Below, piece after piece: positions 397 to 45,561 of a stretch of 48,803 nucleotides of DNA. This DNA is from a virus. Taxonomy: Duplodnaviria; Caudoviricetes. The stretch spans positions 1 to 48,803 of the IMG/VR virus record IMGVR_UViG_3300021408_000008; one strand, given 5' to 3'. The notes below the pieces were generated by a model. It had not been told where the DNA came from, did not search any database, and saw nothing but the letters and a program-made list of their open reading frames with translations. Made by a program: the position numbers and the translations under genes. Within the stretch, counting starts at the first letter, position 1. The number at the start of each line of letters is the position of its first letter.

Positions 397-411
397 ATTC
401 AACCGTTGAAT
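397..411 (+). promoter_or_regulatory. 15-bp palindromic site ATTCAACCGTTGAAT (site 1; duplicated at 48419-48433)
   Basis: Exact motif between the putative -10 and the RBS of the Rad52-like gene. Confidence 0.9.
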
Positions 412-424
412 GTTGAGGAGCGGC

Positions 425-991
425 ATGTCGTTCAGCGATGAGCAGGTTGAGTTCCTGCTCCGACCCATCAACCCGCTGCGGGTGCACACCCTGCGAGGCA
501 ACTCTTACCTGAAGGGTTGGGACGTCCGAGCCCACCTGAACCGGGTCTTCGGTTTCGGCAACTGGTCGGTCCAGACCACCGTCGAGGTCCTCTACGCCGA
601 GCAGCGTCCCAACTCCGACGGCAAGGACCAGTGGCACGTCGGGGCCGTGGCCCACGCCAAGCTCACCATCCTTGTCGGGCAGGACGATCTTCCCGACCCG
701 TACTACGAGGACGTGGCCTCCGACGAGGCTGTGCACCCCAACCGTGGGGAAGCCACCGACAACGTCACCAAGTCCGCTGCGTCCGGTGCGTTGAAGCGGT
801 GTGCTGTGAACCTCGGCGACCAGTTCGGTCTCTCCCTCTACAACGACGGGTCGACCGCGCCGAGCGTGCAGACCGTCACCCCTTGGGCGCGTGGACCGGC
901 GGCCCCGGTTGTGGACCAGAAAGAGTCGGACAAGGAGCCGGAGACTGAGACTGAGCCGGAGTCCCCGGCCGAGAGTGGAGCGTTCAAGTGA
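425..991 (+). CDS. Rad52/Rad22-family (Sak-like) single-strand annealing protein
   Basis: Motifs YLKGWDVRAHLNRVFGFGNWS and KSAASGALKRCAVNLGDQFGLSLY; RBS GAGGAG at 415-420; acidic tail. Confidence 0.85.
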   Translation: MSFSDEQVEFLLRPINPLRVHTLRGNSYLKGWDVRAHLNRVFGFGNWSVQTTVEVLYAEQRPNSDGKDQWHVGAVAHAKLTILVGQDDLPDPYYEDVASDEAVHPNRGEATDNVTKSAASGALKRCAVNLGDQFGLSLYNDGSTAPSVQTVTPWARGPAAPVVDQKESDKEPETETEPESPAESGAFK

Positions 992-1206
992 CTGAGATCT
1001 GGGTCCGCCACATCGATGAGCCCGACGGCTTCTACCTGGGTGAGACCTCGGTGGAGAAGGTCGACGACGTCACCAAGATGCTGGTCCGGTGGGGGCTGCA
1101 CGCCTACGACCGCGAGTGGTCTCAGGAGAGCGACTTCACCGGCCAGTTCACCCAGCAGGGCCGTCACATCGTGTTCGAGGTCATCCTGGGGTGGACTGAT
1201 GAGTGA
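988..1206 (+). CDS. Hypothetical protein
   Basis: GTGA overlap with the upstream stop; codon usage fits the genome. Confidence 0.7.
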   Translation: MTEIWVRHIDEPDGFYLGETSVEKVDDVTKMLVRWGLHAYDREWSQESDFTGQFTQQGRHIVFEVILGWTDE

Positions 1207-1324
1207 AGAGAAGGACTTCATCCGCTGCCCCCGCTGTGGTCGGGTCTCCTACCACCCGGAGGACATCAAACAGGGCTACTGCGGCTTCTGCCACGACTGG
1301 ACCCGTGATGATCCCCGACTCTGA
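1199..1324 (+). CDS. Small Zn-finger-like protein (41 aa)
   Basis: MSEEKDFIRCPRCG...YCGFCHDW carries two CxxC motifs and is tightly packed between neighbours. Confidence 0.65.
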   Translation: MSEEKDFIRCPRCGRVSYHPEDIKQGYCGFCHDWTRDDPRL

Positions 1325-2258
1325 TGCGCTGGCGAGGGAGATGCGCGATGCGGTTCACAAGTTCGAGTCCGACCGGGACCGTCAGTCGGTTGAGGGTCGG
1401 TTGGGCATCTCCGACATCGGCTTCTGCCGCCAGTACGCCGCCTACGTGGTCAAGCAGCAGCCCGCGACTGACGATCCCCCCAAGTGGGCCGCCTTCGTCG
1501 GCACTGCCGTGGGTGACCGTGTCGAATACGTCGTCCAGCACATGTTTCCCATTGCCCGCCGCCACCTGGCCGTTGAGGTGGAGCTACCTTCGGGGCTGAA
1601 GCTGCCCGGCCACCCCGACATCGTCACCCCCAGCGGGGTCATCGACATCAAGACCGTGGATGGGTTGGAGGTGGTGAAGTTCACCGGGGCCAGCGTGCAG
1701 CAGCAGTTCCAGAAGCACCTGTATGCCGCGGCCCTCATCCAGTCGGGGGACCTCGACGAGGAGACGGCGTGGGTGGCGAACGCCTGGTTCGACCGGTCCG
1801 GTCGTCAGCCTGAACCTCACGTTGAGATTGAGGCCTACGACCCGATGTGGCTGTTCTGGGCAGACGAGTGGCTTTCGGATGTTACCTACGCGGTCCGACA
1901 CAACGAGGACGCTGCCCAGGACAAGCCCATCCAGTTCTGCGAAGTGGCGTGCCCCTTCTTCACCGTCTGCCGTGCTGACGACGTGGTGAAGGACCGGGAG
2001 GGCGGGGGGCTCCTGGTGGCCCCTGAGCACGTCCAGGCGCTCTCCCTGTACGTGGAGGCCCGCAAGGACAAGAAGGCCGCTGAGCGGGCCATGGAGGACG
2101 CCCAGAGGGCCCTGGCGGGGGTCTCCGGCGTCGCTGAAGGTCACGTTCTGCGATGGACGAGTGTCGGGGAGTCCGATGTCCCCGGCTACACCCGCCGCGG
2201 CTACACCCGCATGGATGTGCGCAAGCTGCCGAAGCCTGTTGAGCGGAGGAAGAAGTGA
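1308..2258 (+). CDS. Cas4-like / PD-(D/E)xK exonuclease
   Basis: ISDIGFCR, GHPD...IDIKT, QKHLY and a C-terminal CEVACPFFTVC (four-Cys Fe-S pattern); close to the annealase gene. Confidence 0.8.
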   Translation: MIPDSDALAREMRDAVHKFESDRDRQSVEGRLGISDIGFCRQYAAYVVKQQPATDDPPKWAAFVGTAVGDRVEYVVQHMFPIARRHLAVEVELPSGLKLPGHPDIVTPSGVIDIKTVDGLEVVKFTGASVQQQFQKHLYAAALIQSGDLDEETAWVANAWFDRSGRQPEPHVEIEAYDPMWLFWADEWLSDVTYAVRHNEDAAQDKPIQFCEVACPFFTVCRADDVVKDREGGGLLVAPEHVQALSLYVEARKDKKAAERAMEDAQRALAGVSGVAEGHVLRWTSVGESDVPGYTRRGYTRMDVRKLPKPVERRKK

Positions 2259-2530
2259 CCGAGTACGGAGCGGGCGGCCCCTACGCCCACTGTGGGGTCT
2301 GCCTGGAGTTCAGGGCCACTGAGGTGGCCGAGTTCCTCGGGATGATCGGTACCGCCGCGCAGGAGAACCACCTCCCGCTGGAGGCCATCAAGATCCGGAT
2401 CGTGGAACTGCGTGACCCGCCGAACCTTCGGATGGGCTGGTACTTGAACACGGAGGAGCGGCATGGATCAGCCGAGTTTGTTCGAGACATCGCCTACACC
2501 CCCGAAGCGAAGAACAGTCTCGAACGGTAG
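2255..2530 (+). CDS. Hypothetical protein
   Basis: GTGA-coupled to the exonuclease gene. Confidence 0.55.
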   Translation: MTEYGAGGPYAHCGVCLEFRATEVAEFLGMIGTAAQENHLPLEAIKIRIVELRDPPNLRMGWYLNTEERHGSAEFVRDIAYTPEAKNSLER

Positions 2531-13690: not shown

Positions 13691-13798
13691 TCCGCACCCC
13701 TTCAGGTGACACATCACGGCGGGGGTTCCGCGATGGACCTCTCATGGTGAACGGCGCACCTCAACCCGAGGGCCGATCTGTTCGCAGCCTACAACGAC

Positions 13799-13813
13799 AT
13801 TCAACGGTTGAAT
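13799..13813 (-). promoter_or_regulatory. 15-bp palindromic site (site 2, leftward orientation)
   Basis: ATTCAACGGTTGAAT on the + strand, extended by GAC/GTC. On the - strand it lies between TTGACA and TAGGCT upstream of scaffold and capsid. Confidence 0.9.
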
Positions 13814-29222: not shown

Positions 29223-29479
29223 TCCTCCTTGTTCTCAGGTGTACCCAGCGTAGACAGCTCATGCAGCTCGCGACACACCCCGCACCGGGGGCCGTCGAGG
29301 AGCCGGGTGGGCCACCCGCAGCCTTCACAGTCCACTTCCGCTGTCTCGGCGGGTCCTTCGAACCCCATGTCCCAGGCGATCTTCTGCGCGTAGGCGTAAG
29401 CGATCTGCGCGTCAGTGAAGCGCCCCATGGTGTCTCTCACCGCTGCACCGTTCGGGTGACCAGCTTCCCGCATTCGCAT
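29219..29479 (-). CDS. Hypothetical protein with two CxxC motifs
   Basis: CEGC...CGVC; start codon uncertain. Confidence 0.55.
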   Translation of the reverse strand: MRMREAGHPNGAAVRDTMGRFTDAQIAYAYAQKIAWDMGFEGPAETAEVDCEGCGWPTRLLDGPRCGVCRELHELSTLGTPENKEE

Positions 29480-29952
29480 TCGAACTCGCCGAACTCGTCG
29501 CCCTTGTCGAACCAGAGCCGCTTCGCGTCGGCGGGCTTGCGAGAGTTGATGCGGTGCCAGTGCCGCTGGGTGGGGCTGATGAACGCCTCCTCCTCACTGG
29601 GGGTCAGGGCCGCCTCTTCCTCCACCTTGCGAAGGGCCTCGTTCTCGTCGGCGATCTCGTCTTCGGTCATCTCATGTCCGGCGTAGGGCATCAGGTCCAC
29701 CTCCTCCTTCGGCTTGGAGGTGACCTCATTTTCGATCGGGAGCTTCGGCTGCACCAGCTTCGGCGGGTAGGCGGCGGCCTCAGCCTTGGTGTAGGTGGTT
29801 TCCAACATCCGCTGGCCGTACAGCAGCGCCAACTGGGCGACAGAGGTCCTAGTGGACCCCGCCTTCTGCGCGAGGGAGTCCATGCGCGCTACCAGGGCCG
29901 CAGGAACCCTCACCTTCAGCTGGACCTGATCGGTCCCTTCTAGGTTCTCCAT
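29437..29952 (-). CDS. Ribbon-helix-helix (CopG/Arc-like) DNA-binding protein
   Basis: QVQLKVRVPAALVARMDSLAQKAGSTRTSVAQLAL fits the RHH pattern; first gene of the leftward arm. Confidence 0.7.
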   Translation of the reverse strand: MENLEGTDQVQLKVRVPAALVARMDSLAQKAGSTRTSVAQLALLYGQRMLETTYTKAEAAAYPPKLVQPKLPIENEVTSKPKEEVDLMPYAGHEMTEDEIADENEALRKVEEEAALTPSEEEAFISPTQRHWHRINSRKPADAKRLWFDKGDEFGEFECECGKLVTRTVQR

Positions 29953-30112: not shown

Positions 30113-30127
30113 ATTCAACGGTTGAAT
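30113..30127 (-). promoter_or_regulatory. 15-bp palindromic site (site 3, leftward orientation)
   Basis: ATTCAACGGTTGAAT on the + strand, in the divergent control region. Confidence 0.9.
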
Positions 30128-30320
30128 GACATAGATGACAGGACCATTGGTCTAGAAAGGGAAACTTCCCCTCTTCTTGGGTGTGTGTGTATGCAGGTCA
30201 CCGCGTATGGCACGCACCCTTGTACGAGCCTGGCACTATTGACACGACCGATAGGCTGGAACTAGTTCCACCGCACAGACAAGGCAAGACACCAGGCGCA
30301 GGACGCGCAAGGTGAGGTTG

Positions 30321-30349
30321 ACCAGCCATTCAACCGTTGAATGGCTGGT
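30321..30349 (+). promoter_or_regulatory. 15-bp palindromic site (site 4, core 30328-30342) extended to 14-bp arms
   Basis: ACCAGCCATTCAAC-C-GTTGAATGGCTGGT, just upstream of the HTH gene. Confidence 0.9.
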
Positions 30350-30369: not shown

Positions 30370-31284
30370 ATGACGAAGAGCAACCGCAAGGCCACCAGCG
30401 CAACCAGCAGCAAGGCGCACGCGAACCAGCCGCGCCAGCTCACCGCAGTGGACAAGGCCGTGGCGGCCATCGTCGCTGCGAGCAAGGCGACACAGCCGGG
30501 CAACATCCCCACCACGGACGAGCAGCGTCGTGCCGCCGTCCTCACCGTCACCAACCTCGCATCGGGTCAGGTCACCGACACCATGCGCGAGTTCGTGAAG
30601 GCGAACGCGCACCTCGTGCGTGAGTCCTCCACCAGCGCGGCCGTCAACGCGACGAAGGCCGAGGATGCGTTCAAGGTGGCGGAGAAGACTCTCGCCGACC
30701 GCAAGGCAGCGCGGGCCGAGGCCATCAAGCTGGCGAAGGCGCGCACCGCCGATGAGGTGCGCTTCGTGCACCGCAGCGTCACCGTGCACAAGATCTTCAC
30801 TCAGCGTGAGCTGATGGACCTGTGGGAGCTGCGTCAGTCGCAGGCCTCCAACATCGGGCGCGCGGGCAAGATGGCCGACAAGCTGGGTGTTCTCGGCAAC
30901 AACGAGGCTGTCGGGTTCCTGCTGACCAACATCAGCAAGAACAGCAAGACACTCACCAGCGCGGTCGACAAGCCGGGCGCGACCCTCACCACGGTGCGTG
31001 AGGCCATCACCGGTGCGACCGCCGCGAAGGCGAGCAAGCCGAGCGAGTCGCTGTCCGTTCAGGCGCACAAGGATGTCGCGAAGGTGATCAACGACCTTCG
31101 TGTCCTCATGGCCAACGGGCACCAGGTCGCCGACATCGGCGACGTGAAGGGGACGGCGCTGGTGGGTGAGCTGCACACTCAGCTCGCTCTCTACGCGCGC
31201 AAGTACGACATCGCGGGCCTGCCGCTGGTCATCGACGGTCCGACCGACGATGAGCTGGCCGACATCGAGCAGGCCAACGCCTGA
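30370..31284 (+). CDS. Ala/Lys-rich protein with a central HTH; candidate binder of the 15-bp sites
   Basis: FTQRELMDLWELRQSQASNIGR resembles the ParB/Xre-type HTH; apparently monocistronic, strong codon bias, a palindrome on each side. Confidence 0.6.
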   Translation: MTKSNRKATSATSSKAHANQPRQLTAVDKAVAAIVAASKATQPGNIPTTDEQRRAAVLTVTNLASGQVTDTMREFVKANAHLVRESSTSAAVNATKAEDAFKVAEKTLADRKAARAEAIKLAKARTADEVRFVHRSVTVHKIFTQRELMDLWELRQSQASNIGRAGKMADKLGVLGNNEAVGFLLTNISKNSKTLTSAVDKPGATLTTVREAITGATAAKASKPSESLSVQAHKDVAKVINDLRVLMANGHQVADIGDVKGTALVGELHTQLALYARKYDIAGLPLVIDGPTDDELADIEQANA

Positions 31285-31342: not shown

Positions 31343-31357
31343 ATTCAACCGTTGAAT
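31343..31357 (+). promoter_or_regulatory. 15-bp palindromic site (site 5)
   Basis: Exact motif just after the terminator. Confidence 0.9.
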
Positions 31358-31613: not shown

Positions 31614-31642
31614 TTGACATAATGTATCAAACGTGGTATACT
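31614..31642 (+). promoter_or_regulatory. Strong sigma70/HrdB-type early promoter
   Basis: TTGACA-N17-TATACT with extended -10 TG. Confidence 0.85.
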
Positions 31643-31688: not shown

Positions 31689-31703
31689 ATTCAACCGTTG
31701 AAT
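31689..31703 (+). promoter_or_regulatory. 15-bp palindromic site (site 6)
   Basis: Exact motif in the 5' leader, about 40 nt downstream of the predicted start site. Confidence 0.9.
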
Positions 31704-32160: not shown

Positions 32161-32163
32161 GGC

Positions 32164-32430: not shown

Positions 32431-32435
32431 CCCAC

Positions 32436-32576: not shown

Positions 32577-32583
32577 CTTCGGT

Positions 32584-32598
32584 ATTCAACCGTTGAAT
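32584..32598 (+). promoter_or_regulatory. 15-bp palindromic site (site 7)
   Basis: Exact motif 7 nt after the tRNA-like element. Confidence 0.9.
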
Positions 32599-32620
32599 GC
32601 CAATCACCGAGGAGCAGCCC

Positions 32621-33665: not shown

Positions 33666-33668
33666 TTG

Positions 33669-33899: not shown

Positions 33900-34423
33900 A
33901 CGACGCAACGAAGTTGGAACACCCGTCGTGGCTGCACCTGGTGTCGGGGTGGGCGAGCGTCAAGGGGACCCGTGTGCACGGGTACTTCTTCCAGACCGAC
34001 GACAACCGCACGGTGTGGTTCTACTCCGACCAGCCGGTCGATGGCATGCACACCCACCAGGCGTCAACGGCTGTGGGCTTCGAGAAGGACGGTGGGACCA
34101 AGGAGGATTCAACTGTTGAATCCCCAACCCTCTCGATCGAGGACGGTTGGAAGCAGCTCCAAGAGCTGAAGACCATGGTCGTCAGGGAACTCCGCAAGAT
34201 CAACGACTGGACGACCCTGAAAGAACTGGACCTGGCTCGTGAGTACAACATCACCACCGACGTGCGCCACGTCCACTCGAAGGTGCTCGCCACCGATGAG
34301 GAGGACGCGAAGAAGACGGTGCTGGCGAAGATGCAGCTGAAGACGGGGAAGAGCAACGACTTCCTCTCCCACCGCACCGTCGAGGTCGTGCGTCAGGTCG
34401 CGCAGGAGGTGACGGAGAAGTGA
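33896..34423 (+). CDS. Hypothetical protein
   Basis: RBS AAGGAGG; contains palindrome site 8. Confidence 0.7.
   Translation: MNDATKLEHPSWLHLVSGWASVKGTRVHGYFFQTDDNRTVWFYSDQPVDGMHTHQASTAVGFEKDGGTKEDSTVESPTLSIEDGWKQLQELKTMVVRELRKINDWTTLKELDLAREYNITTDVRHVHSKVLATDEEDAKKTVLAKMQLKTGKSNDFLSHRTVEVVRQVAQEVTEK
34107..34121 (+). promoter_or_regulatory. 15-bp palindromic site variant ATTCAACTGTTGAAT (site 8, intragenic)
   Basis: Central base is T; encodes DSTVES. Confidence 0.85.
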
Positions 34424-34859: not shown

Positions 34860-34888
34860 ACCGAGGAAAGTCCAGATAGCCCATGTAC

Positions 34889-34931
34889 CTCAGTGGGGCG
34901 GGGTGGTGGCTGCTTCCCCCGCCCCACTGAG
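34889..34931 (+). terminator. Intergenic stem-loop
   Basis: CTCAGTGGGGCGGGG...CCCCGCCCCACTGAG, 15-bp stem. Confidence 0.65.
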
Positions 34932-34954
34932 AGCCACCGAAGGGAGTGTGCACC

Positions 34955-35242: not shown

Positions 35243-35721
35243 GCAGCGAGACACTGACGATCATCATCCTCGGAGTCACCTGGGCGACTGCCAACACAGT
35301 CGTTATCTACCTGACCAACCGGGGCGTCAAGTTCCAGGTCAGCGAGCTGCTGCGGGTAGCGCAGCTGGATCAGATCACCTGGTCGTGGCGAGACGACGTC
35401 AAGGGCCCACTGCTGGACTTGAAGCAGAAGATCGATGTGGCTGACTTCGACGCCAAGGTGGGGATGGATTCAACCGTTGAATCCCAGCCCATCGGTGGCT
35501 GGACCCCCAAAGGGTGGGAGTGGAAGTTCTGCTACCTGAAGGTGGGCGGCACCGTCATTCATCGTGTCGACTGTCGCCGTGCGCCGCACATGGACCGCCG
35601 AGCTGACGTGTGGGCGTACACCGAGGAGGAGGCGGCCCTGTTCGCCCGGGAGGCGGACATGCGTCCCTGTGACATCTGCAAGCCGTTCGCGTGGCCGGTG
35701 AAGGAGGCAGTCGATGGGTGA
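35239..35721 (+). CDS. Membrane-anchored protein with a C-terminal Ada-like metal-binding motif
   Basis: N-terminal TM; VIHRVDCRR...EEEA...MRPCDICKP. Confidence 0.6.
   Translation: MSSETLTIIILGVTWATANTVVIYLTNRGVKFQVSELLRVAQLDQITWSWRDDVKGPLLDLKQKIDVADFDAKVGMDSTVESQPIGGWTPKGWEWKFCYLKVGGTVIHRVDCRRAPHMDRRADVWAYTEEEAALFAREADMRPCDICKPFAWPVKEAVDG
35468..35482 (+). promoter_or_regulatory. 15-bp palindromic site (site 9, intragenic)
   Basis: Exact motif; encodes DSTVES. Confidence 0.9.
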
Positions 35722-36575: not shown

Positions 36576-37548
36576 GCTGTTGGAGCTGGTCCAGGACGCC
36601 ACCCGACTGGGTTGGCGAGTAAACCTGGCCAACAACAAGGTCCTGTCACTGCATGCACCACGGCTGTCAGGCCAGGATGGCCGCCTGCAAGCGATCACCA
36701 TCCCACGCAGTGAACGGTCCATCAACGACAAGATCATGAACCAGTGGCACCGCAAGATCCGCACTTACGGTGACCCGGCCAAGCTGATGGACGATGACCG
36801 TCTGTTCGTGGAGGCCGAACGTGCCCACGATGAGCCGTGGCCTGGTCCGAAGGCGCAACCGAAGCGCAAAGTCGAGGATGTCCAGCTGCCTGACCCCCGT
36901 CCCGCTCCTCTGCCCACGGCCGTGGCTGAGGCGTTCGATCGGGCCCGCAAGGCACAGCAGGCCATCAACGACCTGGGTGCTGGTCCGCCCGGCACTGGGC
37001 CGGTCGACCGGGATGCTCCAGAGATGCCGGTCGAGGAAGGTTTCCCGTGCGAGGAGTGTGGGAAGGTCCTGCCTTCGCAGCGTGCCCTGCAAGGCCACGT
37101 CACCTGGACTCACAGTAAGGCGATCGAGATGCGTTACAAGGGTGGCCGCGGCACTGGCACCAAGAACGTCCGCAAGAAGTGCCCCATCTGCGGACACATG
37201 TCGGGCCTGCTGCCTCATCACCTGAGCGCGCACGCGCGCCGGGGGGAGACGAAGGAGAACTACGTCCCCGGCACGTACGAGAAGCGCAAGGCCCGGCTGA
37301 AGGAGGCCTACCCGAAGAAGGAGGGGGCAAAGATGGCGGAGTTGAACCAAGCCATGGCAGCACAGGAGGCTCTGGAGCTGGTCGTGGAGACGTTGCAGGA
37401 AGCCGGGGTCATCCCCGGGACAACTGCCCGGCTCCAGGAGCTGGAGGCGGAGAACGAGAAGCTGCGCACGCAGCTCGCCGAGTCGGGAGTGGCGCAGGAG
37501 GAGCTGCGTCAGCGCATCAAGGCAGTCAAGGACCTCTTCGGGTCTTGA
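36520..37548 (+). CDS. Multidomain protein with two C2H2-type Zn fingers and a C-terminal coiled coil
   Basis: FPCEECGKVLPSQRALQGHVTWTH and CPICGHMSGLLPHHLSAH; RBS AAAGGAGG. Confidence 0.75.
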   Translation: MSLTKDKATAEALRALSRELLELVQDATRLGWRVNLANNKVLSLHAPRLSGQDGRLQAITIPRSERSINDKIMNQWHRKIRTYGDPAKLMDDDRLFVEAERAHDEPWPGPKAQPKRKVEDVQLPDPRPAPLPTAVAEAFDRARKAQQAINDLGAGPPGTGPVDRDAPEMPVEEGFPCEECGKVLPSQRALQGHVTWTHSKAIEMRYKGGRGTGTKNVRKKCPICGHMSGLLPHHLSAHARRGETKENYVPGTYEKRKARLKEAYPKKEGAKMAELNQAMAAQEALELVVETLQEAGVIPGTTARLQELEAENEKLRTQLAESGVAQEELRQRIKAVKDLFGS

Positions 37549-37574
37549 CATAGATGCCATACATGTGCTATACT
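37545..37574 (+). promoter_or_regulatory. Strong sigma70/HrdB-type promoter
   Basis: TTGACA-N18-TATACT with extended -10 TG. Confidence 0.85.
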
Positions 37575-37643
37575 GTATGACAGGTGGGTCTCCGCGAGCC
37601 CGACGTAAGGGAGCGGAGGCCCATCTCTCACCGGAGGAGCAGC

Positions 37644-37658
37644 ATTCAACCGTTGAAT
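37644..37658 (+). promoter_or_regulatory. 15-bp palindromic site (site 10)
   Basis: Exact motif extended by CAGC/GCTG, in the leader of the AAA gene. Confidence 0.9.
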
Positions 37659-37682
37659 GCTGACGAGAGAAGAAGGAGCCAC

Positions 37683-39172
37683 GTGGCTACCAGCAGCAAG
37701 GACCTCGACAAGGTGACGCAGGCGAAGATCCTCGCCAACCTCGCCGTCCTCGGTGGACAGCGCGTCCAGGACGACGCTGTCGTCTACGAAGGGACCAAGC
37801 TCATCCTGCCTGAGCAGTACCAGGGGCAGCCGATGCAGAAGGTCGTCAACTTCCTGGTCGAGTACGAGGAGGAGCAGGAGAACAAGTTCAACATCTCCCG
37901 CAACTTCCAGTACCACCCGTTCGACGTGGCCAACGCATTCCAGCTGGTGCTGAAGGACGTGTTCGGCACCACCGGCTTCGGCCAGACCACGTACGACATG
38001 TTCGGTGGGGAGCACCCGCCGGAGTTCAAGACCGTCAGCATCGGCGCCGGGCAGACCGTTCAGGTGCCGTGGGGGCACTTCAAGCTCCCCATCCTCAACG
38101 CCACCTTCGTCATCGACGTGACCCGTGACCGCACCGGGCAGCTCGTGGGCTACCTGGTGTGCGAGGCCCCGAAGAAGTTCCGCTCCCAAGTGGATGGTGT
38201 CTTCAAGGCGGTGGAGCAGCGCCTCACCGAGGTGTCGCTGTTCCGGGGCAAGGCCATCGACGCCAACTGGATGGAGCCGGAGTTCCTGGACCTCACCGGG
38301 GTCGACGAGTCCAAGGTGGCCTACTCCGCGGAGACCATCCGCCAGATCGACGCCAACATCTGGACCGTGGTCGAGCACACCGCTGCCGTTCAGGCTGCGG
38401 GCATGAAGCTGAAGCGGGCCGTCCTGCTGGAAGGCCCCTACGGCACCGGTAAGTCCCTCACCGGCCTGCTGACGGCGAAGAAGGCCGTCGCCAACGGCTG
38501 GACCTTCGTCTACTGCCGCCCCGGCCAGGACCTGGCGCAGGCGCTGCACGCGGCGAAGCTGCTCGCTCCGTCGGTGGTGTTCTTCGAGGACCTCGACGTC
38601 ATCGCCGAGCCGGGCGCTGGGCAGGACCAGGACCGGGTGTCGAAGCTGCTGGACCAGTTCGACGGCATCAGCAACAAGACCAGCCCGGTACTGGCTGTGC
38701 TCACCACCAACCACGTCGACCGGCTGCACCGGGGCATGCTGCGCCCGGGGCGTCTCGACGCGGTCGTGCACATCGGTGAGCTGGACGCTGCCGGGGTGCG
38801 GGTGCTGATCGACTCGGTGCTGCCGGAGCGGCTGCGGGGACGATCAACTACGACGAGGTCTTCATCGAGATGGAGGGCTTCCTTCCCGCGTTCATCAAGG
38901 AGGCTGCGGAGCGTGCTCTGCGCTACTCCATCGCCCGCACGAAGGGCCGCCCGGAGCCGGTGAGCACCGTGGACCTGGTCGCTGCTGCGACTGGTCTGCG
39001 ACCGCAGCTGGACCTCATGAACGGGGCTGGGGAGAAGAAGGACCGGCCCTCGCTGGACGAGGCGCTGGGCGACCTCGTCGACGGGCGCCTGGGCAAGGTC
39101 GTCGTGGTCGACAACGACAACCCGGACTACGTCGAGTCCCGGCTGAAGATCCAGGAGACCTCCACGAAGTAA
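37683..39172 (+). CDS. AAA+ ATPase, split by a -1 frameshift near 38838
   Basis: VLLEGPYGTGKS, VVFFEDLD, TTNHVDRL and LRPGRLD; the lid region (INYDEV...EGFLPAFIKEAAERA) continues in the -1 frame to 39172. Confidence 0.85.
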
Positions 39173-39177
39173 CGGAC

Positions 39178-39214
39178 CAGGGTGGGGCTCGCATTTCGGG
39201 CGAACCCCACCCTG
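39178..39214 (+). terminator. Stem-loop after the AAA gene
   Basis: CAGGGTGGGG-CTCGC...GCGAA-CCCCACCCTG. Confidence 0.7.
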
Positions 39215-39261
39215 ATGCCATATGCTGCCACTGTGTGGCAGACCGACGCTAGGGATGCCAC

Positions 39262-39510
39262 ATGACCCAGTACAAGGCCCTCGTCGGCCCACAAGGCACC
39301 GAGTCTTCTACCTGGCCAAACAGGGACAAGGCGAGGTTGGCGGTCCTGCACGGGTTGTCCGTCGCCGCGGACGTGAACCCCGTTGATGCGGCGGTGATCG
39401 AACAGGTGATGAACCACCTGAACGAGGCCCGTGAGTCCTTCGTTGACTACTTCCTGTTCGACGGCGAGGAATGGACGGCCCAGTACTGGCCGGATTCAAC
39501 CGTTGAATGA
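39262..39510 (+). CDS. Hypothetical protein
   Basis: ORF ends within palindrome site 11 (DSTVE*). Confidence 0.65.
   Translation: MTQYKALVGPQGTESSTWPNRDKARLAVLHGLSVAADVNPVDAAVIEQVMNHLNEARESFVDYFLFDGEEWTAQYWPDSTVE
39494..39508 (+). promoter_or_regulatory. 15-bp palindromic site (site 11)
   Basis: Exact motif overlapping the ATGA gene junction. Confidence 0.9.
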
Positions 39511-39842
39511 AGGAGGGACCAGCGGTGGTGGAGTTCCTGCGTGACCTGCCCAAGACCAAGCAACCCCCGGCCCGGTCGAAGTACGACTGGGAAGCCATTG
39601 CCCGGGCACTGAAGCGCGAACCAGGGGAGTGGGCGGTCGTGGCACGAGATGTGCCTCGCTCGCACGCCGCGCAGATCCGTGCCGGGGCCAAGAGGGCTTT
39701 CCGTCCCGCCGAGCACTACCTGTGCACCACGGTCGGCCCGGCTGGTCCCCGGGCTGACCTGTACATGGCCTACATCGGGTCACCTGGTGCTCGGCTGGTG
39801 GCGGAGAAGCGACACCCGAGAAAGAGAGATGAAGATGAGTGA
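39507..39842 (+). CDS. Hypothetical protein
   Basis: YDWEAIARALKREPGEWAVV; ATGA coupling. Confidence 0.7.
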   Translation: MKEGPAVVEFLRDLPKTKQPPARSKYDWEAIARALKREPGEWAVVARDVPRSHAAQIRAGAKRAFRPAEHYLCTTVGPAGPRADLYMAYIGSPGARLVAEKRHPRKRDEDE

Positions 39843-40080
39843 GTCCAAAGACGTCATCGAGATCGACCAGACCGGCGAGAAGCAGATCCACCTCACCTTC
39901 GAGGAGCTGGAGGCGCTGCTCGACAGCGCCGCCGGGGTGGGCTGGGCGGTGGGCGCCGCCGGTGACCCGGCCCCGAAGATCCAGCTGAGGGACATGCGCG
40001 AGCCGGGGCAGCGTGGCAGCGAGACCAGCGCCCCGCTGAGCGACATCGGCCTCAGCGTCTCCCCCAAGGGCGATGACTGA
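39835..40080 (+). CDS. Hypothetical protein
   Basis: Packed ORF with good codon usage. Confidence 0.6.
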   Translation: MSESKDVIEIDQTGEKQIHLTFEELEALLDSAAGVGWAVGAAGDPAPKIQLRDMREPGQRGSETSAPLSDIGLSVSPKGDD

Positions 40081-40480
40081 CGAAACGGTCTCGGCCAACC
40101 GCCGCCGACTGATGGTCGCCCGCGCCGTGCTGAACGAGCTGGCTGGCGCGGGCGTCCTGTCGGGGAAGGTGATCAACCGCAAGGACCCCGACGACTGGCA
40201 CGTCACCGACTTGCCGTTGGATGGGCGGCTGATCTGGACGGGGTCGAAGAACCCGGCGAGGATCACCGAACTGTGGCGCTGGGTGCGTGATCACCGACAG
40301 CGCAAGAAGTGGGGGGCGCTGGCGTCCCCTGCATGGGGGGTTGGTGCGGGGATCGAGATCCGAATCCCGCTGGAAGACTTCGCCACCTTGCTGGGGAAGT
40401 TGGACATGCTCCTGAGGGAGCAGGAGAGGTGGCTCAATGGCCCTGCCAGTGGCGACGTTCCAGGGAAACCTGACCGCTGA
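40073..40480 (+). CDS. Hypothetical protein
   Basis: Packed ORF upstream of ssb. Confidence 0.6.
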   Translation: MTDETVSANRRRLMVARAVLNELAGAGVLSGKVINRKDPDDWHVTDLPLDGRLIWTGSKNPARITELWRWVRDHRQRKKWGALASPAWGVGAGIEIRIPLEDFATLLGKLDMLLREQERWLNGPASGDVPGKPDR

Positions 40481-40853
40481 CCCGGAGCTGAAGTTCACTC
40501 CCAACGGTCAGGCGGTGGCGAACTTCCGCCTCGCCATGACGAACCGTCAGAAGACCGACGACGGGAAGTGGGAGGACAAGGACCAGCTGTTCATCGGCGT
40601 CTCGGCGTGGGAGCAGCTGGCCGAGAACGTGGTCGAGACCCTGAAGAAGGGGATGGCCGTGATCGTGGTGGGTCAGCTGAAGCAGCGCTCCTACGAGAAC
40701 AAGGAAGGCGTCACGGTCACCGTGACGGAGCTGCGTGCCTACGACGTGGGTCCGTCGCTTCGCTACGCGGCCGCGGACGTGAAGAAGGTGTCACGTCAGC
40801 AGGCTGGTGAGCAGCCCGCGAAGCCGAAGGTCCCCGATGCCCCGCCGTTCTGA
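40437..40853 (+). CDS. ssb: Single-stranded DNA-binding protein
   Basis: GNLTADPELKFTPNGQAVANFRLA, WEQLAENV, GQLKQRSYE, VGPSLRYA and C-terminal DAPPF. Confidence 0.95.
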   Translation: MALPVATFQGNLTADPELKFTPNGQAVANFRLAMTNRQKTDDGKWEDKDQLFIGVSAWEQLAENVVETLKKGMAVIVVGQLKQRSYENKEGVTVTVTELRAYDVGPSLRYAAADVKKVSRQQAGEQPAKPKVPDAPPF

Positions 40854-41049
40854 GGTTGCCCGGCAGGTCGCTGACTTCGCCCACGACGAGGACGAGGCGC
40901 TGCTGATCAAGCGCCAGTACGACAAGGCGATCGAAGGGTTCACCCTGCCGGAGGAGAGAGATCGTTGGGGCTCGACGGTGGAGTGGGACAACGAGAAGGC
41001 GGTCTGGAACATCATCGTAATCGAGTACGAGGAGGATGCAGATGAGTGA
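40837..41049 (+). CDS. Hypothetical protein
   Basis: Fills the gap after ssb; acidic. Confidence 0.55.
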   Translation: MPRRSEVARQVADFAHDEDEALLIKRQYDKAIEGFTLPEERDRWGSTVEWDNEKAVWNIIVIEYEEDADE

Positions 41050-41467
41050 CGAAGAGTCCAATGGCGAGGAGGAGGTCAAGGACATCCTGGAGCAGCTGTT
41101 GGGTGCGCTCCCACCGGAGATCAAGAAGGACCTGGCGATGAAGTTGCGTGAGCGGCTGCGCCAGGCCGCCTGGATCCGCACCGGCATCCCGCAGGAGTAC
41201 ATCGAGGACAAGGTCGACACGGGCATGATCGCCTCGTTCGCCTACATCGACCTCGGCATCCAAGTGGGCCTGCTCGCTGCTCTGGAGTACGTGCAGAACG
41301 GCGAGCCACCGACGCAGGAGTGGCAGTACCCGGACTTCAAGGGCACTGCTGACGAGGCGGCGGCCCGGAAGCTGAAGACGGACCCCCAGTTCGCCGCGAA
41401 GGTCCAGGAGCAGCAGAGGAAGTATCGCCAGGTAGGGATGCTCTACCCCCCGAAGGAGGGCGAGTGA
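41042..41467 (+). CDS. Hypothetical protein
   Basis: RBS GAGGAGG. Confidence 0.7.
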   Translation: MSDEESNGEEEVKDILEQLLGALPPEIKKDLAMKLRERLRQAAWIRTGIPQEYIEDKVDTGMIASFAYIDLGIQVGLLAALEYVQNGEPPTQEWQYPDFKGTADEAAARKLKTDPQFAAKVQEQQRKYRQVGMLYPPKEGE

Positions 41468-42069
41468 TCATCAAGCTCAGGGTCCACGAGGACACTATCC
41501 ACGCGCACGTGGACGTGTCCGTGGGGGTGGACCGGAACCACCTGCAACTGTCCGGCTACCTGACCATGGGCCGTGATCAGTGGGCGCAGTTCGAGTCCAC
41601 GATGGTGACCGGCTCCGGTAGCGGGGTGACGCTGGTGGTGGAGCAAGACCACAGAGAGGAAAGGGTCTATGGCGAAGAAGGAAGAGCCGGAGCTGACGAG
41701 GGAGCAGAAGTTCTCGGCAGCGAGGAACACGGCGCTGCGGCACTTGCGGGAGAAGTACCGCAAGGAGTGGAACGCGCTGCTGAAACTGGAGCTGGCGAAG
41801 GCGGGGATCACCGACTGGACGCCCCCGCTGACGGAGGAGGAGAGGGCACAGCAGACGATCATCGGGCTGCTGGAGCAGTTCCCGAGCCTTCGCCGGAGCT
41901 GGCTGCCGAGCCCCGGTACTCCCCTGGCGGGGGAATCCCCGGGAAGGACCGGGTGGCCGAACGTGCAGCAGACGAACAGCCCGGAGCTGCCGCCGGACCC
42001 GGACAGCCTCCCCGTAAGCGAGCCGCCCGCAAGCGCGCCGCCGGACCCCGTTCTCACGAAGAAGGGTGA
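41464..42069 (+). CDS. Hypothetical protein whose C-terminal part overlaps 41669-42112
   Basis: RBS AAGGAGG and GTGA coupling. Confidence 0.5.
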   Translation: MIIKLRVHEDTIHAHVDVSVGVDRNHLQLSGYLTMGRDQWAQFESTMVTGSGSGVTLVVEQDHREERVYGEEGRAGADEGAEVLGSEEHGAAALAGEVPQGVERAAETGAGEGGDHRLDAPADGGGEGTADDHRAAGAVPEPSPELAAEPRYSPGGGIPGKDRVAERAADEQPGAAAGPGQPPRKRAARKRAAGPRSHEEG

Positions 42070-42112
42070 GCCTGACCCTGCTGAGGACGTCACCCGCAAC
42101 GACTACGCCTGA
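41669..42112 (+). CDS. Hypothetical protein with basic N-terminus and Pro-rich tail
   Basis: RBS GGAAAGG; ARNTALRHLREKYRKEW. Confidence 0.65.
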   Translation: MAKKEEPELTREQKFSAARNTALRHLREKYRKEWNALLKLELAKAGITDWTPPLTEEERAQQTIIGLLEQFPSLRRSWLPSPGTPLAGESPGRTGWPNVQQTNSPELPPDPDSLPVSEPPASAPPDPVLTKKGEPDPAEDVTRNDYA

Positions 42113-42122
42113 GGGAGGCGTC

Positions 42123-42287
42123 ATGAACGAGGAGGAGCGCCAGCGCATCGAGCGTGGCGACTCGGAGTCCTCGGTCCCGCTGGTCGTGGCTGCGGCGCTG
42201 CTCGCGCTGCTGCTGCTGTGGGTGGCTGGGTCGTGTGACACCGATGACGGTTCGTGGCGTGACCCCACCACGTGGGTGGGGAAGTGA
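42123..42287 (+). CDS. Small membrane protein
   Basis: RBS GGGAGG; a single TM segment. Confidence 0.6.
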   Translation: MNEEERQRIERGDSESSVPLVVAAALLALLLLWVAGSCDTDDGSWRDPTTWVGK

Positions 42288-42288
42288 C

Positions 42289-42303
42289 ATTCAACCGTTG
42301 AAT
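42289..42303 (+). promoter_or_regulatory. 15-bp palindromic site (site 12)
   Basis: Exact motif at the start of a long structured intergenic region. Confidence 0.9.
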
Positions 42304-42790
42304 GGTGAAGCCCCCGGGGAGCGTGCAGTCTCAACCCGGGGGCCATTCACCGAAGAAAGGAGCGGAGCAGCTCCAACCAACATCCCCGAGTGTAGCGGGT
42401 GTAGCGTGTGTGCCACCGAAGGAGCCGGAGCGACCCCCACTCACGGGAAAGGAGGCCCAACCAACATGGCTCGCCGCGTGCAGCGGCAGGGCTTCCAGCA
42501 GAAAGAAATCTCGGCCCATGTGGGCCTGCTGAAGCCTTGTCCCCCCTGACCGCCGCTGTAGGCGGCATACGAGACTGCGCCTCGGATCATCAAGTCGTCT
42601 CGGGCTCCTAGCCGGGCTGGGGAGGTAACGCCGGTTGAGCTTCGCGCATGGCGCAGGTGGGTGGACTCTGTTCGAACCGCAACCCGAGGTCTGTAGATGA
42701 AGAACCACAGCAAGACGGCGATGAGGTTGCGGCGTCAGACAGCAGCGTGGCATCGCCGAAACGGTCCGGTTGAGACCCGTACGAGCGAGG
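42304..42790 (+). ncRNA. Structured non-coding region with an embedded 27-aa ORF (42466-42549)
   Basis: Several inverted repeats and no convincing long ORF; RBS GAAAGGAGG before the small ORF. Confidence 0.4.
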
Positions 42791-42798
42791 AGAGAGCA

Positions 42799-43080
42799 GT
42801 GAGTGAAGAGAAGATCCAGTCCTACGGTTCGACGTTCTCCGGTGACCTGATGGTCCCGCTCCCCCCTCCGGGGGTGCACATGTGGGTGGTCCCGGCGTAC
42901 TTCCTGGTCAACATGGACGAGGACAGGGAAGACCTCCCCGACGGCGACTACGGGATGCACCTGACGTTCGGGAAGGACACTCTCGCCGAGATCGGCTCCC
43001 CCGGGTGCAACCTCTGCGAACACGCCTACGAGGACGCGAAGGACATCCCGTGCCCGGGGAAGCCCCAGGAGGACGCGTGA
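42799..43080 (+). CDS. Cys/His hypothetical protein (paralog B1)
   Basis: GDLMVPLPPPGVHMW...GCNLC...PCPG. Confidence 0.7.
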   Translation: MSEEKIQSYGSTFSGDLMVPLPPPGVHMWVVPAYFLVNMDEDREDLPDGDYGMHLTFGKDTLAEIGSPGCNLCEHAYEDAKDIPCPGKPQEDA

Positions 43081-43382
43081 GCGACGAGGAACGCCGGGAG
43101 GAACAGGAGGTCTTCCAAAACATCGGCATGAGCGTTGCTGGCGAACTGATGATGCAGCGGCCTCCCACCGGTGAGCACATGTGGACGGTCCCGGTCTGGT
43201 ATCGGGTGGACCCGTCGACGATGGAGAAGAGTGACGACGGGTTCGAGAACCTGTTCATGGACATGACCAGGGCGACGATGGTGGTCACCGGCGAGTTGGG
43301 GTGTGTCCTTTGCCGCCGCTCCTACACCTACGGCAAGTACCTGCCGTGTGAGGGCTCCTACGAGGCCAGGACGGACCTTTGA
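43077..43382 (+). CDS. Cys/His hypothetical protein (paralog B2)
   Basis: GELMMQRPPTGEHMW...GCVLC...PCEG. Confidence 0.7.
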   Translation: MSDEERREEQEVFQNIGMSVAGELMMQRPPTGEHMWTVPVWYRVDPSTMEKSDDGFENLFMDMTRATMVVTGELGCVLCRRSYTYGKYLPCEGSYEARTDL

Positions 43383-44569
43383 GCGAGGTCGTCTACCGGA
43401 GTGAGATGGCCCTGCTGGGGATGCTGCTGGAGCAGCGGGGTCTCTCGGTAGATAACGTTTTCGTAACGCTGCCTCCTTCGGAGTGGTCCTCCGCGCACAT
43501 CCTCATAGCTGAGGTTCTTCAAGGGATGAACGACGCTGGTGAAGAGATCAACCTCCTCACGGTGATGCAGAAGCTCACCGAGACCGGGATGTTGAACCGC
43601 ATCGGTGGTGCTCCGAAGCTGTATGAGCTGGTCAGACACTCCTACGACTACGGTCACGACCGGCTGCTGGAGTTCCTCGTAGCCAACGCCACCAGGCGCA
43701 AACTGAACGAGATCGGGCACCGTGCGCAGCTGATGGCACAAGACCCGGAGATCGAACCTGAGACCATCCGGCAGCGGATGACCGAGGATCTCGGACAAGT
43801 GGGGGTTTATAACGGTGAGGTAACGACCCTGGGCTGGCCTGGGGAAACAACCGACCCGGAACCCAACTTCGTCATCCCGGCACTGCTCGCCGAGGACGAC
43901 CGGGTCATGATCACCGGCTACGAAGGCGGCGGGAAAACGGTGCTGTGCCGTCAGCTCGTAGCTGCCGTAGTTGTCGGTAGGCACCCGTTCCTCTTCAGCG
44001 AGTTCGAACCGCAACCGGCGCTACACGTGGACCTGGAGAACCCGCAGTACCTGTCCGACAACGCCTACCGGGGCATCCGCAACCGGCTGATGGCCGAGAA
44101 CGTGCACGTGCCGGACCTGCTGCACCGGCTGTCGCCGCGGGTCTTCAGTGTCTTCGAGGAACGCGACGTGGCGTGGCTGCTGCGGGCGGTGCGCAAGGTG
44201 CAGCCGAAGCTCATCGCCATCGGTCCCCTGAAGAACATGGTCGGCGGCAACGACCTCAACGAGGAGCGGGTGGCGGTAAAGGTCTGTGACCTTCTGAACC
44301 GCATCAGGGCCGAGACGGGCGCGGCCCTCGTGGTGGAGGCCCACGCCTCCTGGGAGTCCCGCAAGACCGACTGGCGCCCTCGTGGAAGCAGTGCGCTGGT
44401 CGGTTGGCCCGAGTTCGGGTTCGGCATGAAGCCGCTGTCAGTGACGACCCCACGGGCAGCTGAACTGGTGTCCTGGCGTGGGTCACGAGTCGATAACAGG
44501 TACTGGCCGCAATTCCTCGCCGAAGGGACCGTGTGGCCGTGGGTCGAAGACCCCAGGTTGGAGAGGTAG
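43379..44569 (+). CDS. Replicative helicase: DnaB-like N-domain plus RecA-fold (AAA_25/RepA-type) ATPase
   Basis: EMALLGMLL...INLLTV...IGGAPKLYEL (DnaB N-domain); ITGYEGGGKT, LHVDLEN and PRGSSAL. Confidence 0.8.
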   Translation: MSEVVYRSEMALLGMLLEQRGLSVDNVFVTLPPSEWSSAHILIAEVLQGMNDAGEEINLLTVMQKLTETGMLNRIGGAPKLYELVRHSYDYGHDRLLEFLVANATRRKLNEIGHRAQLMAQDPEIEPETIRQRMTEDLGQVGVYNGEVTTLGWPGETTDPEPNFVIPALLAEDDRVMITGYEGGGKTVLCRQLVAAVVVGRHPFLFSEFEPQPALHVDLENPQYLSDNAYRGIRNRLMAENVHVPDLLHRLSPRVFSVFEERDVAWLLRAVRKVQPKLIAIGPLKNMVGGNDLNEERVAVKVCDLLNRIRAETGAALVVEAHASWESRKTDWRPRGSSALVGWPEFGFGMKPLSVTTPRAAELVSWRGSRVDNRYWPQFLAEGTVWPWVEDPRLER

Positions 44570-44573
44570 AGGA

Positions 44574-44786
44574 ATGGAACATCCACGGCACGGAGCAGAG
44601 GATCGGTTCGGCAACCCGGTACCTCCCATCGAGGCCACCGACCTGTGGCTGCGGTTCAAGGTGCGAAGGCAGTGCCGTCAACGAGGAGGTCACTGGTGGC
44701 ACTCCAGTGACGCGATGATCGGCTGGGCCTGCTGTCAGTGCGGCAAGGGAACTGACGGGATGCCAAGGGACGGGACGAGTGGATGA
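44574..44786 (+). CDS. Small Cys-rich protein
   Basis: C..RGGHWW...CCQCG; RBS AGAGG. Confidence 0.55.
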   Translation: MEHPRHGAEDRFGNPVPPIEATDLWLRFKVRRQCRQRGGHWWHSSDAMIGWACCQCGKGTDGMPRDGTSG

Positions 44787-44914
44787 CCAGTGTCAGCGAC
44801 AGGCCGATGCGGCAGTGCCCCGAATGCAGAGCGTGGGTGCTGTCGCTGCGCATCAGGGCAGGACACAAGATGACCTGCTCGCAGCCGAACCGACAGGACG
44901 AGGAGCAGAACTGA
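44783..44914 (+). CDS. Small protein (43 aa, CxxC...HxxxC; not in the ORF track)
   Basis: ATGA and TGATG coupling on both sides. Confidence 0.5.
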   Translation: MTSVSDRPMRQCPECRAWVLSLRIRAGHKMTCSQPNRQDEEQN

Positions 44915-45168
44915 TGGACATCAACCCCAACCAGGTCGAGCGCATGATCAGGGCGTTCGAACGCATCGGCACCGCTCTGAAAGAGCAGGCCGCGGCGACG
45001 AAGCAGAACGCGGAGGCGGCAGAGAAGCTGGCCGCTGCCGCCCAGTTCCAGGCGCAGGTGTCCGACGCCTCCTCGCAGATCATGGAGCGCGGCACCGGCC
45101 TCCAGCAGCAGATGCTGGACCTTCAGAAGGAGCAGATGCAGGACATGCGTCGCCTGCACGGGGGGTGA
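44914..45168 (+). CDS. Coiled-coil hypothetical protein
   Basis: RBS GAGGAG; Q/A-rich. Confidence 0.65.
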   Translation: MDINPNQVERMIRAFERIGTALKEQAAATKQNAEAAEKLAAAAQFQAQVSDASSQIMERGTGLQQQMLDLQKEQMQDMRRLHGG

Positions 45169-45171
45169 GCC

Positions 45172-45561
45172 GTGGATGACCTCTGGTACACCCGCGAGGG
45201 AGACCGGGTTCCCCTGGAGGAGTGGGTGCGGCTCAGTGAGGAAGCCCAGGCTGCCGGTTACGAGTACCGCCGGGTCGGGCAGGACGTGGTCGGGGAGTAC
45301 CGGATCTCCACCGTGCTGCTGGGCATCGACCACAGCTGGGGTGGCAAGGGCCCGCCACTGATCTTCGAAACGATGGTGTTCTCGACCATCGACAGGACGG
45401 TGGACTTCTTCGGCCGGGAGCACACCGTCAACGACGCCTACGACCAGTTCACTGAGCGCTACACCACTGTCGACGAGGCTCAGCGTGGTCACGAGTTGAT
45501 AACGGAGAACATCCGTCAGCTGGTCAACAGCATTCAACCGTTGAATGAGGAGGAGCGATGA
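45172..45561 (+). CDS. Conserved-looking phage hypothetical protein
   Basis: ISTVLLGIDHSW...PLIFETMVF...RYTT..EA..GH. Confidence 0.75.
   Translation: MDDLWYTREGDRVPLEEWVRLSEEAQAAGYEYRRVGQDVVGEYRISTVLLGIDHSWGGKGPPLIFETMVFSTIDRTVDFFGREHTVNDAYDQFTERYTTVDEAQRGHELITENIRQLVNSIQPLNEEER
45532..45546 (+). promoter_or_regulatory. 15-bp palindromic site (site 13, intragenic, at the 3' end of an ORF)
   Basis: Exact motif (IQPLN) directly before the RBS GAGGAGG of the next gene. Confidence 0.9.

Follow-up and report, generated by a model that had tools for sequence, protein, structure and literature searches.

Dispersed palindromes of a podovirus-like soil phage, replaced at matching places in a close relative, are probably operators of a phage-encoded repressor

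What does a phage do with a 15-bp palindrome that it keeps at 13 places of its genome? The window, i.e. the whole 48,803-nt stretch analysed here (IMG/VR record IMGVR_UViG_3300021408_000008), is a complete circular record composed of a 48,022-bp unit and a 775-nt terminal overlap, with a G+C content of 62–69%. The original prediction had listed near-invariant palindromes (arms ATTCAAC and GTTGAAT around one central base) and had seen in them a phage-wide control system. The analysis shows that they are a real, selected and phage-specific set of sites. They are probably the operators of a dimeric or tetrameric repressor encoded by the phage.

All 14 listed coordinates are exact. The copy at 48419 lies inside the terminal overlap and duplicates that at 397, leaving 13 unique sites. 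In 100 shuffles the chance expectation was 0.00 for exact copies and 0.04 for copies with at most 2 mismatches. The near-invariance holds as well: a mismatch scan of the genome gives no window at 1–3 mismatches and one at 4, and neither 7-mer arm is found outside a full site. The shuffles and the exact recount rule out chance or an assembly artefact. The metagenome record L129 is identical, i.e. the same sequence, and so gives no independent support.

The close relative G001 (48,349 bp) shares 93% capsid identity and ~70–75% nucleotide identity in aligned blocks with the window. It is the only close relative with DNA from six protein-based viral scans, one metagenome and one genome scan; the Logan relatives P0003, P0006, P0007 and P0020-P0022 are known as proteins only. 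A search of related phages at up to 2 mismatches, as the original prediction had proposed, does not find the motif in G001, yet G001 has a palindrome set of its own at matching places: 10 exact copies of GTTTCTAC-S-GTAGAAAC and an eleventh (G001:10971) in which one base is changed, symmetrically in both arms. Each of the 11 G001 sites can be paired by position with one in the window, six by flank similarity or alignment and five by gene order, one of the latter (G001:28483) being ambiguous between 31689 and 32584 (flank scores 22 and 34, near background). The window thus has two sites more than G001. The half-sites of the two phages differ at 3 of 8 positions, in all copies and both arms, and keep 5 of 7 bases. 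The arms are invariant and two-fold symmetric at 13/13 sites here and at 10/11 in G001. In-gene G001 copies are read as VSTVET, and one of them lies in a protein with 26% identity to its counterpart; the site is present despite this low identity and has therefore outlasted the protein around it. Such persistence at matching places, together with two candidate binders with DNA-binding folds, upholds the idea of a phage-wide control system. The sites and the features discussed with them are as follows.

397..411, + strand: site between the Sak/Rad52 gene and the divergent 132-aa (amino acid) gene; centre C; a rightward TANNNT ends 6 nt before it and a leftward TANNNT lies 10 nt beyond; counterpart G001:45930
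13786..13791, - strand: capsid operon promoter, candidate -10 hexamer (by consensus only)
13799..13813, - strand: site directly past the stop of 13815-14624, 7 nt upstream of the TANNNT before the scaffold/capsid genes; centre C on the - strand; counterpart G001:10971 at the same offset, with the symmetric double change
29437..29952, - strand: 171-aa ribbon-helix-helix (RHH) protein, leading candidate binder
30113..30127, orientation not assignable: hub site between the divergent arms; counterpart G001:26926, flipped
30252..30257, + strand: first early promoter, candidate -10 hexamer; the surrounding block is conserved with G001
30328..30342, + strand: site 27 nt upstream of the first early gene, its symmetry 7 bp longer; counterpart G001:27150
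30370..31284, + strand: 304-aa first early protein, second candidate binder
31343..31357, + strand: site past the hairpin that trails the first early gene; without G001 counterpart
31614..31642, + strand: sigma-70-type promoter match, 11/12
31689..31703, + strand: site in the leader of 31729-32160; this one or 32584 is the counterpart of G001:28483
32584..32598, + strand: site upstream of the next gene's ribosome-binding site
34107..34121, + strand: site inside open reading frame (ORF) 33851-34423, reads DSTVES; centre T at the Thr wobble position; counterpart G001:30092 (VSTVET)
35468..35482, + strand: site inside ORF 35173-35721, reads DSTVES; counterpart G001:31664
37545..37574, + strand: sigma-70-type promoter match, 11/12
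37644..37658, + strand: site in the leader of the AAA ATPase gene; counterpart G001:33980
39494..39508, + strand: site at the 3' end of ORF 39262-39510, overlapping the stop; counterpart G001:35846
42289..42303, + strand: intergenic site past 42066-42287; counterpart G001:38658
45532..45546, + strand: site at the 3' end of ORF 45172-45561, abutting the next ribosome-binding site; nearest counterpart G001:42787 (intergenic)
47998..48396, - strand: 132-aa protein divergent from the Sak gene, third and weak candidate binder
48419..48433, + strand: second copy of site 397, within the terminal overlap

On the - strand (29952 to 2734) lie the genes for terminase, portal, large internal virion proteins, scaffold, major capsid, tail and lysis. 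The + strand, from 30370 round to ~2530, carries small genes of no known family, an AAA ATPase, SSB, a DnaB-N/AAA helicase-like protein, Sak/Rad52 and an exonuclease. Of the 13 sites, 12 fall within the hub and early arm, which make up 43% of the genome (p 0.0003), and the two site-free regions (14–30 kb and 2.7–13.7 kb) are real. Four of the 13 sites are coding; three of them read DSTVE, with the centre at the Thr wobble position. Two of the four, 39494 and 45532, had been placed at gene starts or junctions; more precisely, they are located in the 3' ends of ORFs. A TANNNT hexamer is found within -120..+60 of only 5/13 sites on the strands examined. Such hexamers precede sites 30328 and 397, and four sites lie 6–76 nt downstream of candidate -10 hexamers. 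The two sigma-70-type matches are 46 and 69 nt upstream of sites 31689 and 37644, in a scan that gave these 2 matches versus 1.8 expected in shuffles. In both phages the capsid-operon site 13799 is 7 nt upstream of a TANNNT, a promoter-spacer position outside that promoter's transcript. The earlier assignment of site 30113 to the leftward unit is not supported: of the conserved leftward -10-like hexamers even the nearest has the site ~95 nt upstream of it, and the G001 counterpart is flipped. Separately, the segment just upstream of site 32584 (32420-32585) is non-coding and G+C-rich, with several hairpins and a tRNA T-arm-like motif; ARAGORN and Rfam are negative for it.

A strict orientation of the centre with transcription had also been proposed, and had been taken to argue against a symmetric dimer. 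The + strand bases are as described (C at 10 sites, G at 13799 and 30113, T at 34107), and the sense-strand C bias is found in this genome at 11/11 non-hub G:C centres. As a strict rule it fails in G001, where the sense-strand base is C at 7/10 non-hub sites (p 0.34) and at 6/7 of those that are non-coding. The centre differs at 4/11 matching positions between the phages, hub site included; the site sets being orthologous, they are not independent evidence. A G:C pair is present at the centre of 23/24 sites of both phages, in either orientation in G001. This is what a symmetric binder would allow, and the argument from polarity is weakened.

The motif is private to this phage among the viral contigs scanned. 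In 21 of 64 parts scanned it was met at 117 loci, one with two copies and the rest single; the motif of G001 gave 19 stretches, 9 from G001 itself and 10 single matches. On the parts covered, a widespread viral repeat is rejected, other loci being nearly all single copies. Two genomes of Streptomyces cluster BF show no comparable palindrome set, and none of 77 capsid-centred loci, mostly of the late arm, has at least 3 copies of one palindrome. Among 11 distant genomes scanned in whole or part, G006 has a palindrome set, G005 a 14-mer and G002 a tandem array; 8 show nothing clear. G006 (freshwater-type, capsid identity 34%) has 7 copies of an 8+1+8 palindrome on its early arm; in L217:418-5845 this 17-bp A+T-rich palindrome with a 1-bp centre contains a -10-like hexamer. 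The first early protein of G006 appeared by eye a plausible homolog of the 304-aa protein and failed on comparison. In G005 (L214:8281-12625) about ten copies of the non-palindromic 14-mer, which includes the ribosome-binding site, precede early genes, like start-associated sequences. The array of G002 (G002:41548-41880) comprises ~22 degenerate 15-bp units. A literature search over a collection with few subscription papers found no description of this motif or system.

How would the sites work? As operators, they would be bound as double-stranded DNA by one phage-made repressor, most likely the RHH protein 29437-29952. Binding would be symmetric, with two RHH dimers, one per arm, forming a tetramer as with P22 Mnt. 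On or just behind promoters the repressor would damp transcription, while at in-gene sites it would block the elongating polymerase; between the two phages, site and binder would have changed specificity together. The purpose would likely be a timed shut-off of early genes after a burst at entry, or the exclusion of a second infecting phage with matching specificity. A scan of 70 of the 351 listed ORFs (the likely genes) against PHROGs and Pfam gave neither an integrase nor parAB, which makes classical prophage immunity less likely.

Three candidate binders had been named in the original prediction. Two of them have DNA-binding folds, RHH for one and a likely helix-turn-helix (HTH) for the 304-aa protein; the third is weak. 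The RHH protein comprises an N-terminal RHH domain (residues 7-58), an acidic linker and a C-terminal His2-Cys2 domain. Its model has an extended segment (8-17) and helices at 18-31 and 35-53, with a predicted local distance difference test (pLDDT) of 80–92 over residues 11-50. Among the best structural matches, at Z 5–6 (root-mean-square deviation 1.7–3.9 over 43–54 residues), are the RHH proteins PutA52, CopASO, TraM, SvtR and NikR; Arc follows at 4.6. By sequence the matches to RHH families are weak, that to Pfam RHH_1 having an E of 0.02–0.2, below cut-off. The His2-Cys2 domain is kept in about a dozen proteins (14 matches at E <=0.001, 11 aligned) and has no family match. The strand expected to read DNA in this fold is QLKVRVP here, QVRFRIP in G001, and GITLRVP and YVRVRLP in two Logan relatives. 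In other relatives it is most variable at alternate positions, and R15 is invariant in 11/11 aligned. Its modest change between the phages parallels the modest change of the site, which keeps 5 of 7 half-site bases. P22 Mnt binds its palindrome as a tetramer with the half-site GTGGACC (PMC2726951). This half-site matches that of each phage at 4/7 bases, including 4 of the 5 bases common to both. From these models and comparisons, if the sites are operators, the RHH protein may well be their binder, though this is tentative. A relative of it, P0009, has two tandem RHH domains.

The 304-aa protein has a site 27 nt before its start, with a matching site in G001. Its residues 143-165 align to the HTH of ParB (29 ParB proteins) with a score of 27 versus at most 19 in 39 block shuffles, at a probability of 7%; the alignment spans 23 columns of the HTH only, and the following helices do not align. 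A HigA2 HTH match has an E of 0.13. The protein is predicted to form a homodimer (score 0.70 versus 0.00 for the best control; pLDDT 81), three runs sharing at least 90% of contacts; the mark used is reached by 20/30 solved homodimers and by 1/23 single-chain proteins. In the predicted dimer the chains meet along residues 80-132, a long antiparallel coiled coil, and at a C-terminal domain (227-284), while 153-226 take no part in the contact. The monomer model is poor (mean pLDDT 43), and Foldseek with that model gave nothing significant. The recognition helix is sharply different in the two phages, RQSQASNIGR here versus AKSGISKMTA in G001. In the Logan relatives P0006/P0021 and P0007/P0020, encoded on contigs of 47,433 and 14,802 bp, this helix is nearly identical to that of G001, but the RHH strand differs. 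At the position aligned to ParB 173 this phage has Q and G001 has K, and the outermost fixed base of the site is A here and G there, one position apart. This recalls base reading by residue 173 in Noc/ParB, where Q173 reads adenine and R173 guanine (PMC7383237). The large helix change, however, is hard to square with the retention of 5 of 7 bases in the site. Judging from residue counts, the antiparallel coiled coil may also hold the two HTH units too far apart; a 15-bp site calls for a distance of ~30 Å. Under the operator reading the 304-aa protein is a possible but doubtful binder. The 132-aa gene starts 22 nt from site 48419, and its product gives a weak feature-level hint of a sigma-region-4-like fold (0.81, a lead only); it is a very unlikely binder, and it is somewhat unlikely that the operators are read by something other than these three proteins.

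Several observations weigh against a repressor acting on operators. G006 has its 7-copy palindrome without a detectable homolog of either the RHH or the 304-aa protein. The Z of 5–6 of the RHH domain is below the tool's small-domain bar of 8, and structural likeness shows no function; the likeness to Mnt was picked post hoc. The hub site lies ~95 nt upstream of the likely -10 of the RHH gene, so that autoregulation is not evident. Eight of the 13 sites have no candidate -10 nearby, and the sense-strand base is C at 8/8 non-coding, non-hub sites here (p 0.008). Independent reading of the half-sites does not predict the symmetric double change of G001:10971. Finally the flanks are symmetric copy by copy, with 25 extra contiguous pairs versus 10.6 when permuted (p 0.0007). 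The operator reading leaves this copy-specific flank symmetry, and the graded spacing of the sites, unaccounted for.

The spacing is seen outward from the hub, with gaps of 215, 1015, 346, 895, 1523, 1361, 2176, 1850, 2795, 3243 and 2887 bp here and of 224, 1333, 1609, 1572, 2316, 1866, 2812, 4129 and 3143 bp in G001 (rho 0.945 and 0.95 respectively; p <0.0001 versus uniform placement). Such widening, from 215 to ~3,000 bp, more regular than a Poisson process of the same gradient (p ~0.003), speaks for a reading of the sites as architectural docking points: a 304-aa dimer or RHH tetramer would bridge or loop them, as KorB does with OB or MatP with matS, and so organise or pace the early arm at entry or at the start of replication, repression being a side effect. 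The 8/13 sites away from promoters agree with docking, as does the 304-aa protein being the first early product and a predicted coiled-coil dimer; the OB of KorB is also an odd-centred palindrome (PMC11790492). The gradient, however, was noticed post hoc, it may follow gene size and promoter density, the orthologous sites are not independent, and the 7 sites of G006 show no widening. No ParB CTPase domain was found either: the N-terminal CTPase domain of ParB has no Pfam match, and the ParB match of the 304-aa protein covers 23 HTH columns only. The same lack of a CTPase domain and of any ParB family match speaks against the parS/KorB-like function that had been offered as one option. Docking as the main role is improbable. 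The flank symmetry leads elsewhere. Without the two longest flanks 14 pairs remain versus 7.7 (p 0.02), and at offset 8 pairing occurs at 11/13 sites versus 7.1 (p 0.013). No asymmetric arm change is present at the 24 sites of the two phages and one symmetric double change is (G001:10971). Together these facts point, tentatively, to selection for a hairpin or to template-switch copying between arms. An RNA or single-stranded DNA hairpin signal had been an option of the original prediction. In this reading a phage protein would recognise the hairpin, be it in RNA, in single-stranded DNA or in a cruciform, and act in processing, antitermination or translational control. As RNA the core by itself folds weakly (-1.0 kcal/mol); once flanks are included, its stem reaches a predicted probability >0.9 on the sense strand at 11/13 sites. 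Many sites also lie in leaders shortly before a ribosome-binding site, with the sense-strand C bias. The copy-specific symmetry that favours this option here is nevertheless not significant in G001 (13 versus 9.4, p 0.17) or G006 (4 versus 3.3, p 0.41). Any palindrome folds on both strands, and the antisense strand gives similar values. The loop base on the sense strand varies (C, G or T), arm invariance is more than a hairpin alone would require, the capsid-operon site is upstream of its own candidate -10, and Rfam gives 0 matches at E <=0.5 in 29400-48803, the range scanned. We thus assign hairpin function a low probability.

Template switching copies one palindrome arm onto the other, and would yield the same flanks, arm changes and flips without any hairpin function. 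If true, it would also flip the centre between C and G and account for a dozen sites changing together; nothing was found in the literature on template switching with operators and phages. One combined reading is that the palindromes are a ruler of widening docking sites from the genome end that enters first, read by the coiled-coil dimer of the first early gene, which would meter entry or shut-off; template switching would let the whole set change with its binder, and symmetric flanks and flipped centres would be its scars. We consider this unlikely. The sites could also be points of recombination or module exchange, used by the Sak/exonuclease system or by a site-specific recombinase. Sak/Rad52 and an exonuclease are indeed encoded, and the 895-bp stretch 31689-32584 holds genes unmatched in G001, which has one site there, the same outcome as the between-repeat recombination of cluster O phages (PMC4351075). 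The flank scores (22 and 34), however, leave undecided whether G001:28483 is a hybrid of 31689 and 32584, and there are sites within genes and in a promoter spacer. The integron core consensus, RYYYAAC / GTTRRRY, is matched by the arms here but broken by those of G001, and no site-specific recombinase was found among the 70 ORFs. Integron attC sites keep the core consensus, form a long imperfect stem and come with an integrase; with a 1-bp spacer, a consensus broken in G001 and no tyrosine recombinase, attC sites were rejected. Recombination as the role of the palindromes is highly improbable.

Taken as operators, the palindromes can be compared with several published systems. Cluster O mycobacteriophages carry 34 copies of a 17-bp dyad repeat with a 3-bp centre, of the same sequence in five siphoviruses (PMC4351075). 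Both sets have invariant 7-bp arms, are dispersed over intergenic and coding DNA and denser in the non-structural arm, and show a slight centre bias and occasional indels between sites; a dimeric phage protein has been proposed there too (PMC4351075). In contrast, the phage described here is podovirus-like and has 13 copies, a 1-bp centre, a wholesale replacement in the sister phage and graded spacing. The cluster O sequence TGTTCGG-NNN-CCGAACA is not that of these sites, from which it differs in arms and spacer. The set works like the cluster O repeats but is no member of them. P22 Mnt has a C-terminal tetramer domain, and its operator, the one on which it acts, is odd-centred. An extra C-terminal domain is thus common to Mnt and the RHH protein, but here that domain is a His2-Cys2 domain without family match, the sites number 11–13 genome-wide and the RHH binder is only a candidate. 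Otherwise Mnt is a phage RHH protein that binds a palindrome as a tetramer, with a 7-base half-site (PMC2726951, PMC3413123); in the post hoc comparison 4/7 bases of that half-site recur here. Two plasmid regulators come close: Reg576 of p576, with two RHH dimers per operator and a transient burst of establishment genes after entry (PMC6294495), and ArtA of pSK41, an RHH regulator with dispersed operators on a mobile element (PMC2777438). They differ in belonging to plasmids and in having operators at promoters, made of paired heptamers; the parts of these papers cited report no mid-gene sites. The stoperators of cluster A phages are 20–30 dispersed sites, mostly off promoters, that block elongation and whose motif varies among related phages (PMC6550527). 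Operator-like and roadblock-like positions are mixed there as in this set, but stoperators are sites without dyad symmetry for a monomer, follow the direction of transcription and serve prophage immunity (PMC6550527). The sites here are perfect palindromes, not asymmetric 13–14-bp sites of the stoperator type. No integrase or parABS as in cluster A was found among the scanned ORFs, and HTH_ParB was not found in G000, G001 or G006. KorB of RK2, a ParB-family CTPase clamp with a partner ATPase, has in OB a dispersed odd-centred palindrome with a G:C centre, which the present sites share (PMC11790492). The set resembles the cluster O repeats, the stoperators, KorB/OB and Reg576 and belongs to none.

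Two runs from one soil sample contain the DNA and may be its source. By its sequence the phage is podovirus-like and distant kin of Streptomyces cluster BF: the closest cultured phages are the BF podoviruses, at 31–33% capsid identity, and megablast found no cultured relative. These being the nearest phages in culture, we infer an actinobacterial host. In BF phages terminase is gene 1 and early genes end at the opposite terminus, which by analogy makes the hub near 30100 the probable genome end. RNA polymerase genes are absent from the 70 ORFs scanned, and no tRNA was found. The 1,969-aa protein was considered as an N4-like virion RNA polymerase, with the palindromes as its promoters, and rejected for lack of the catalytic aspartate motif and of any family match. 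Other features of the genome may be recorded. The hub contains a second perfect palindrome, of 12 bp (30258-30269), and a G-run block (30053-30070), both conserved with G001; a promoter element and the genome end or a packaging site may be marked by them. Between the RHH gene and terminase, a 122-aa ORF of no known family (28854-29222, - strand) has 94% identity in G001, above that of the capsid. The similarity of the AAA ATPase ORF (459 aa) to a 490-aa protein of G001 stops near residue 420 (38771-38963), and the tail resumes in another frame (38870-39172, 69% identity to G001), by a frameshift or a sequence error. A C2H2-like zinc finger protein (36415-37548; 34% identity in G001) is HicA-like by eye in its N-terminal part. 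Two tandem paralogous small Cys/His-rich proteins (32991-33665) form a pair also present in G001. An HNH endonuclease (12656-13102, - strand; 83% identity in G001) is encoded between the scaffold and capsid genes.

Dispersed phage palindromes are themselves already published; new here are the complete replacement of the sites in a sister phage, their graded spacing and the symmetry of their flanks. The cluster O precedent described such palindromes without a binder or a function. The present pair of phages is a natural swap experiment, with two sequences for the same 11 places and each candidate binder in two versions. If the RHH protein is the binder, it would be the phage counterpart of plasmid establishment repressors, and would provide an orthogonal repressor-operator pair for actinobacteria. 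Graded spacing and symmetric flanks, if kept in more relatives, would bear on the concerted change of a dozen sites and on position as timing information.

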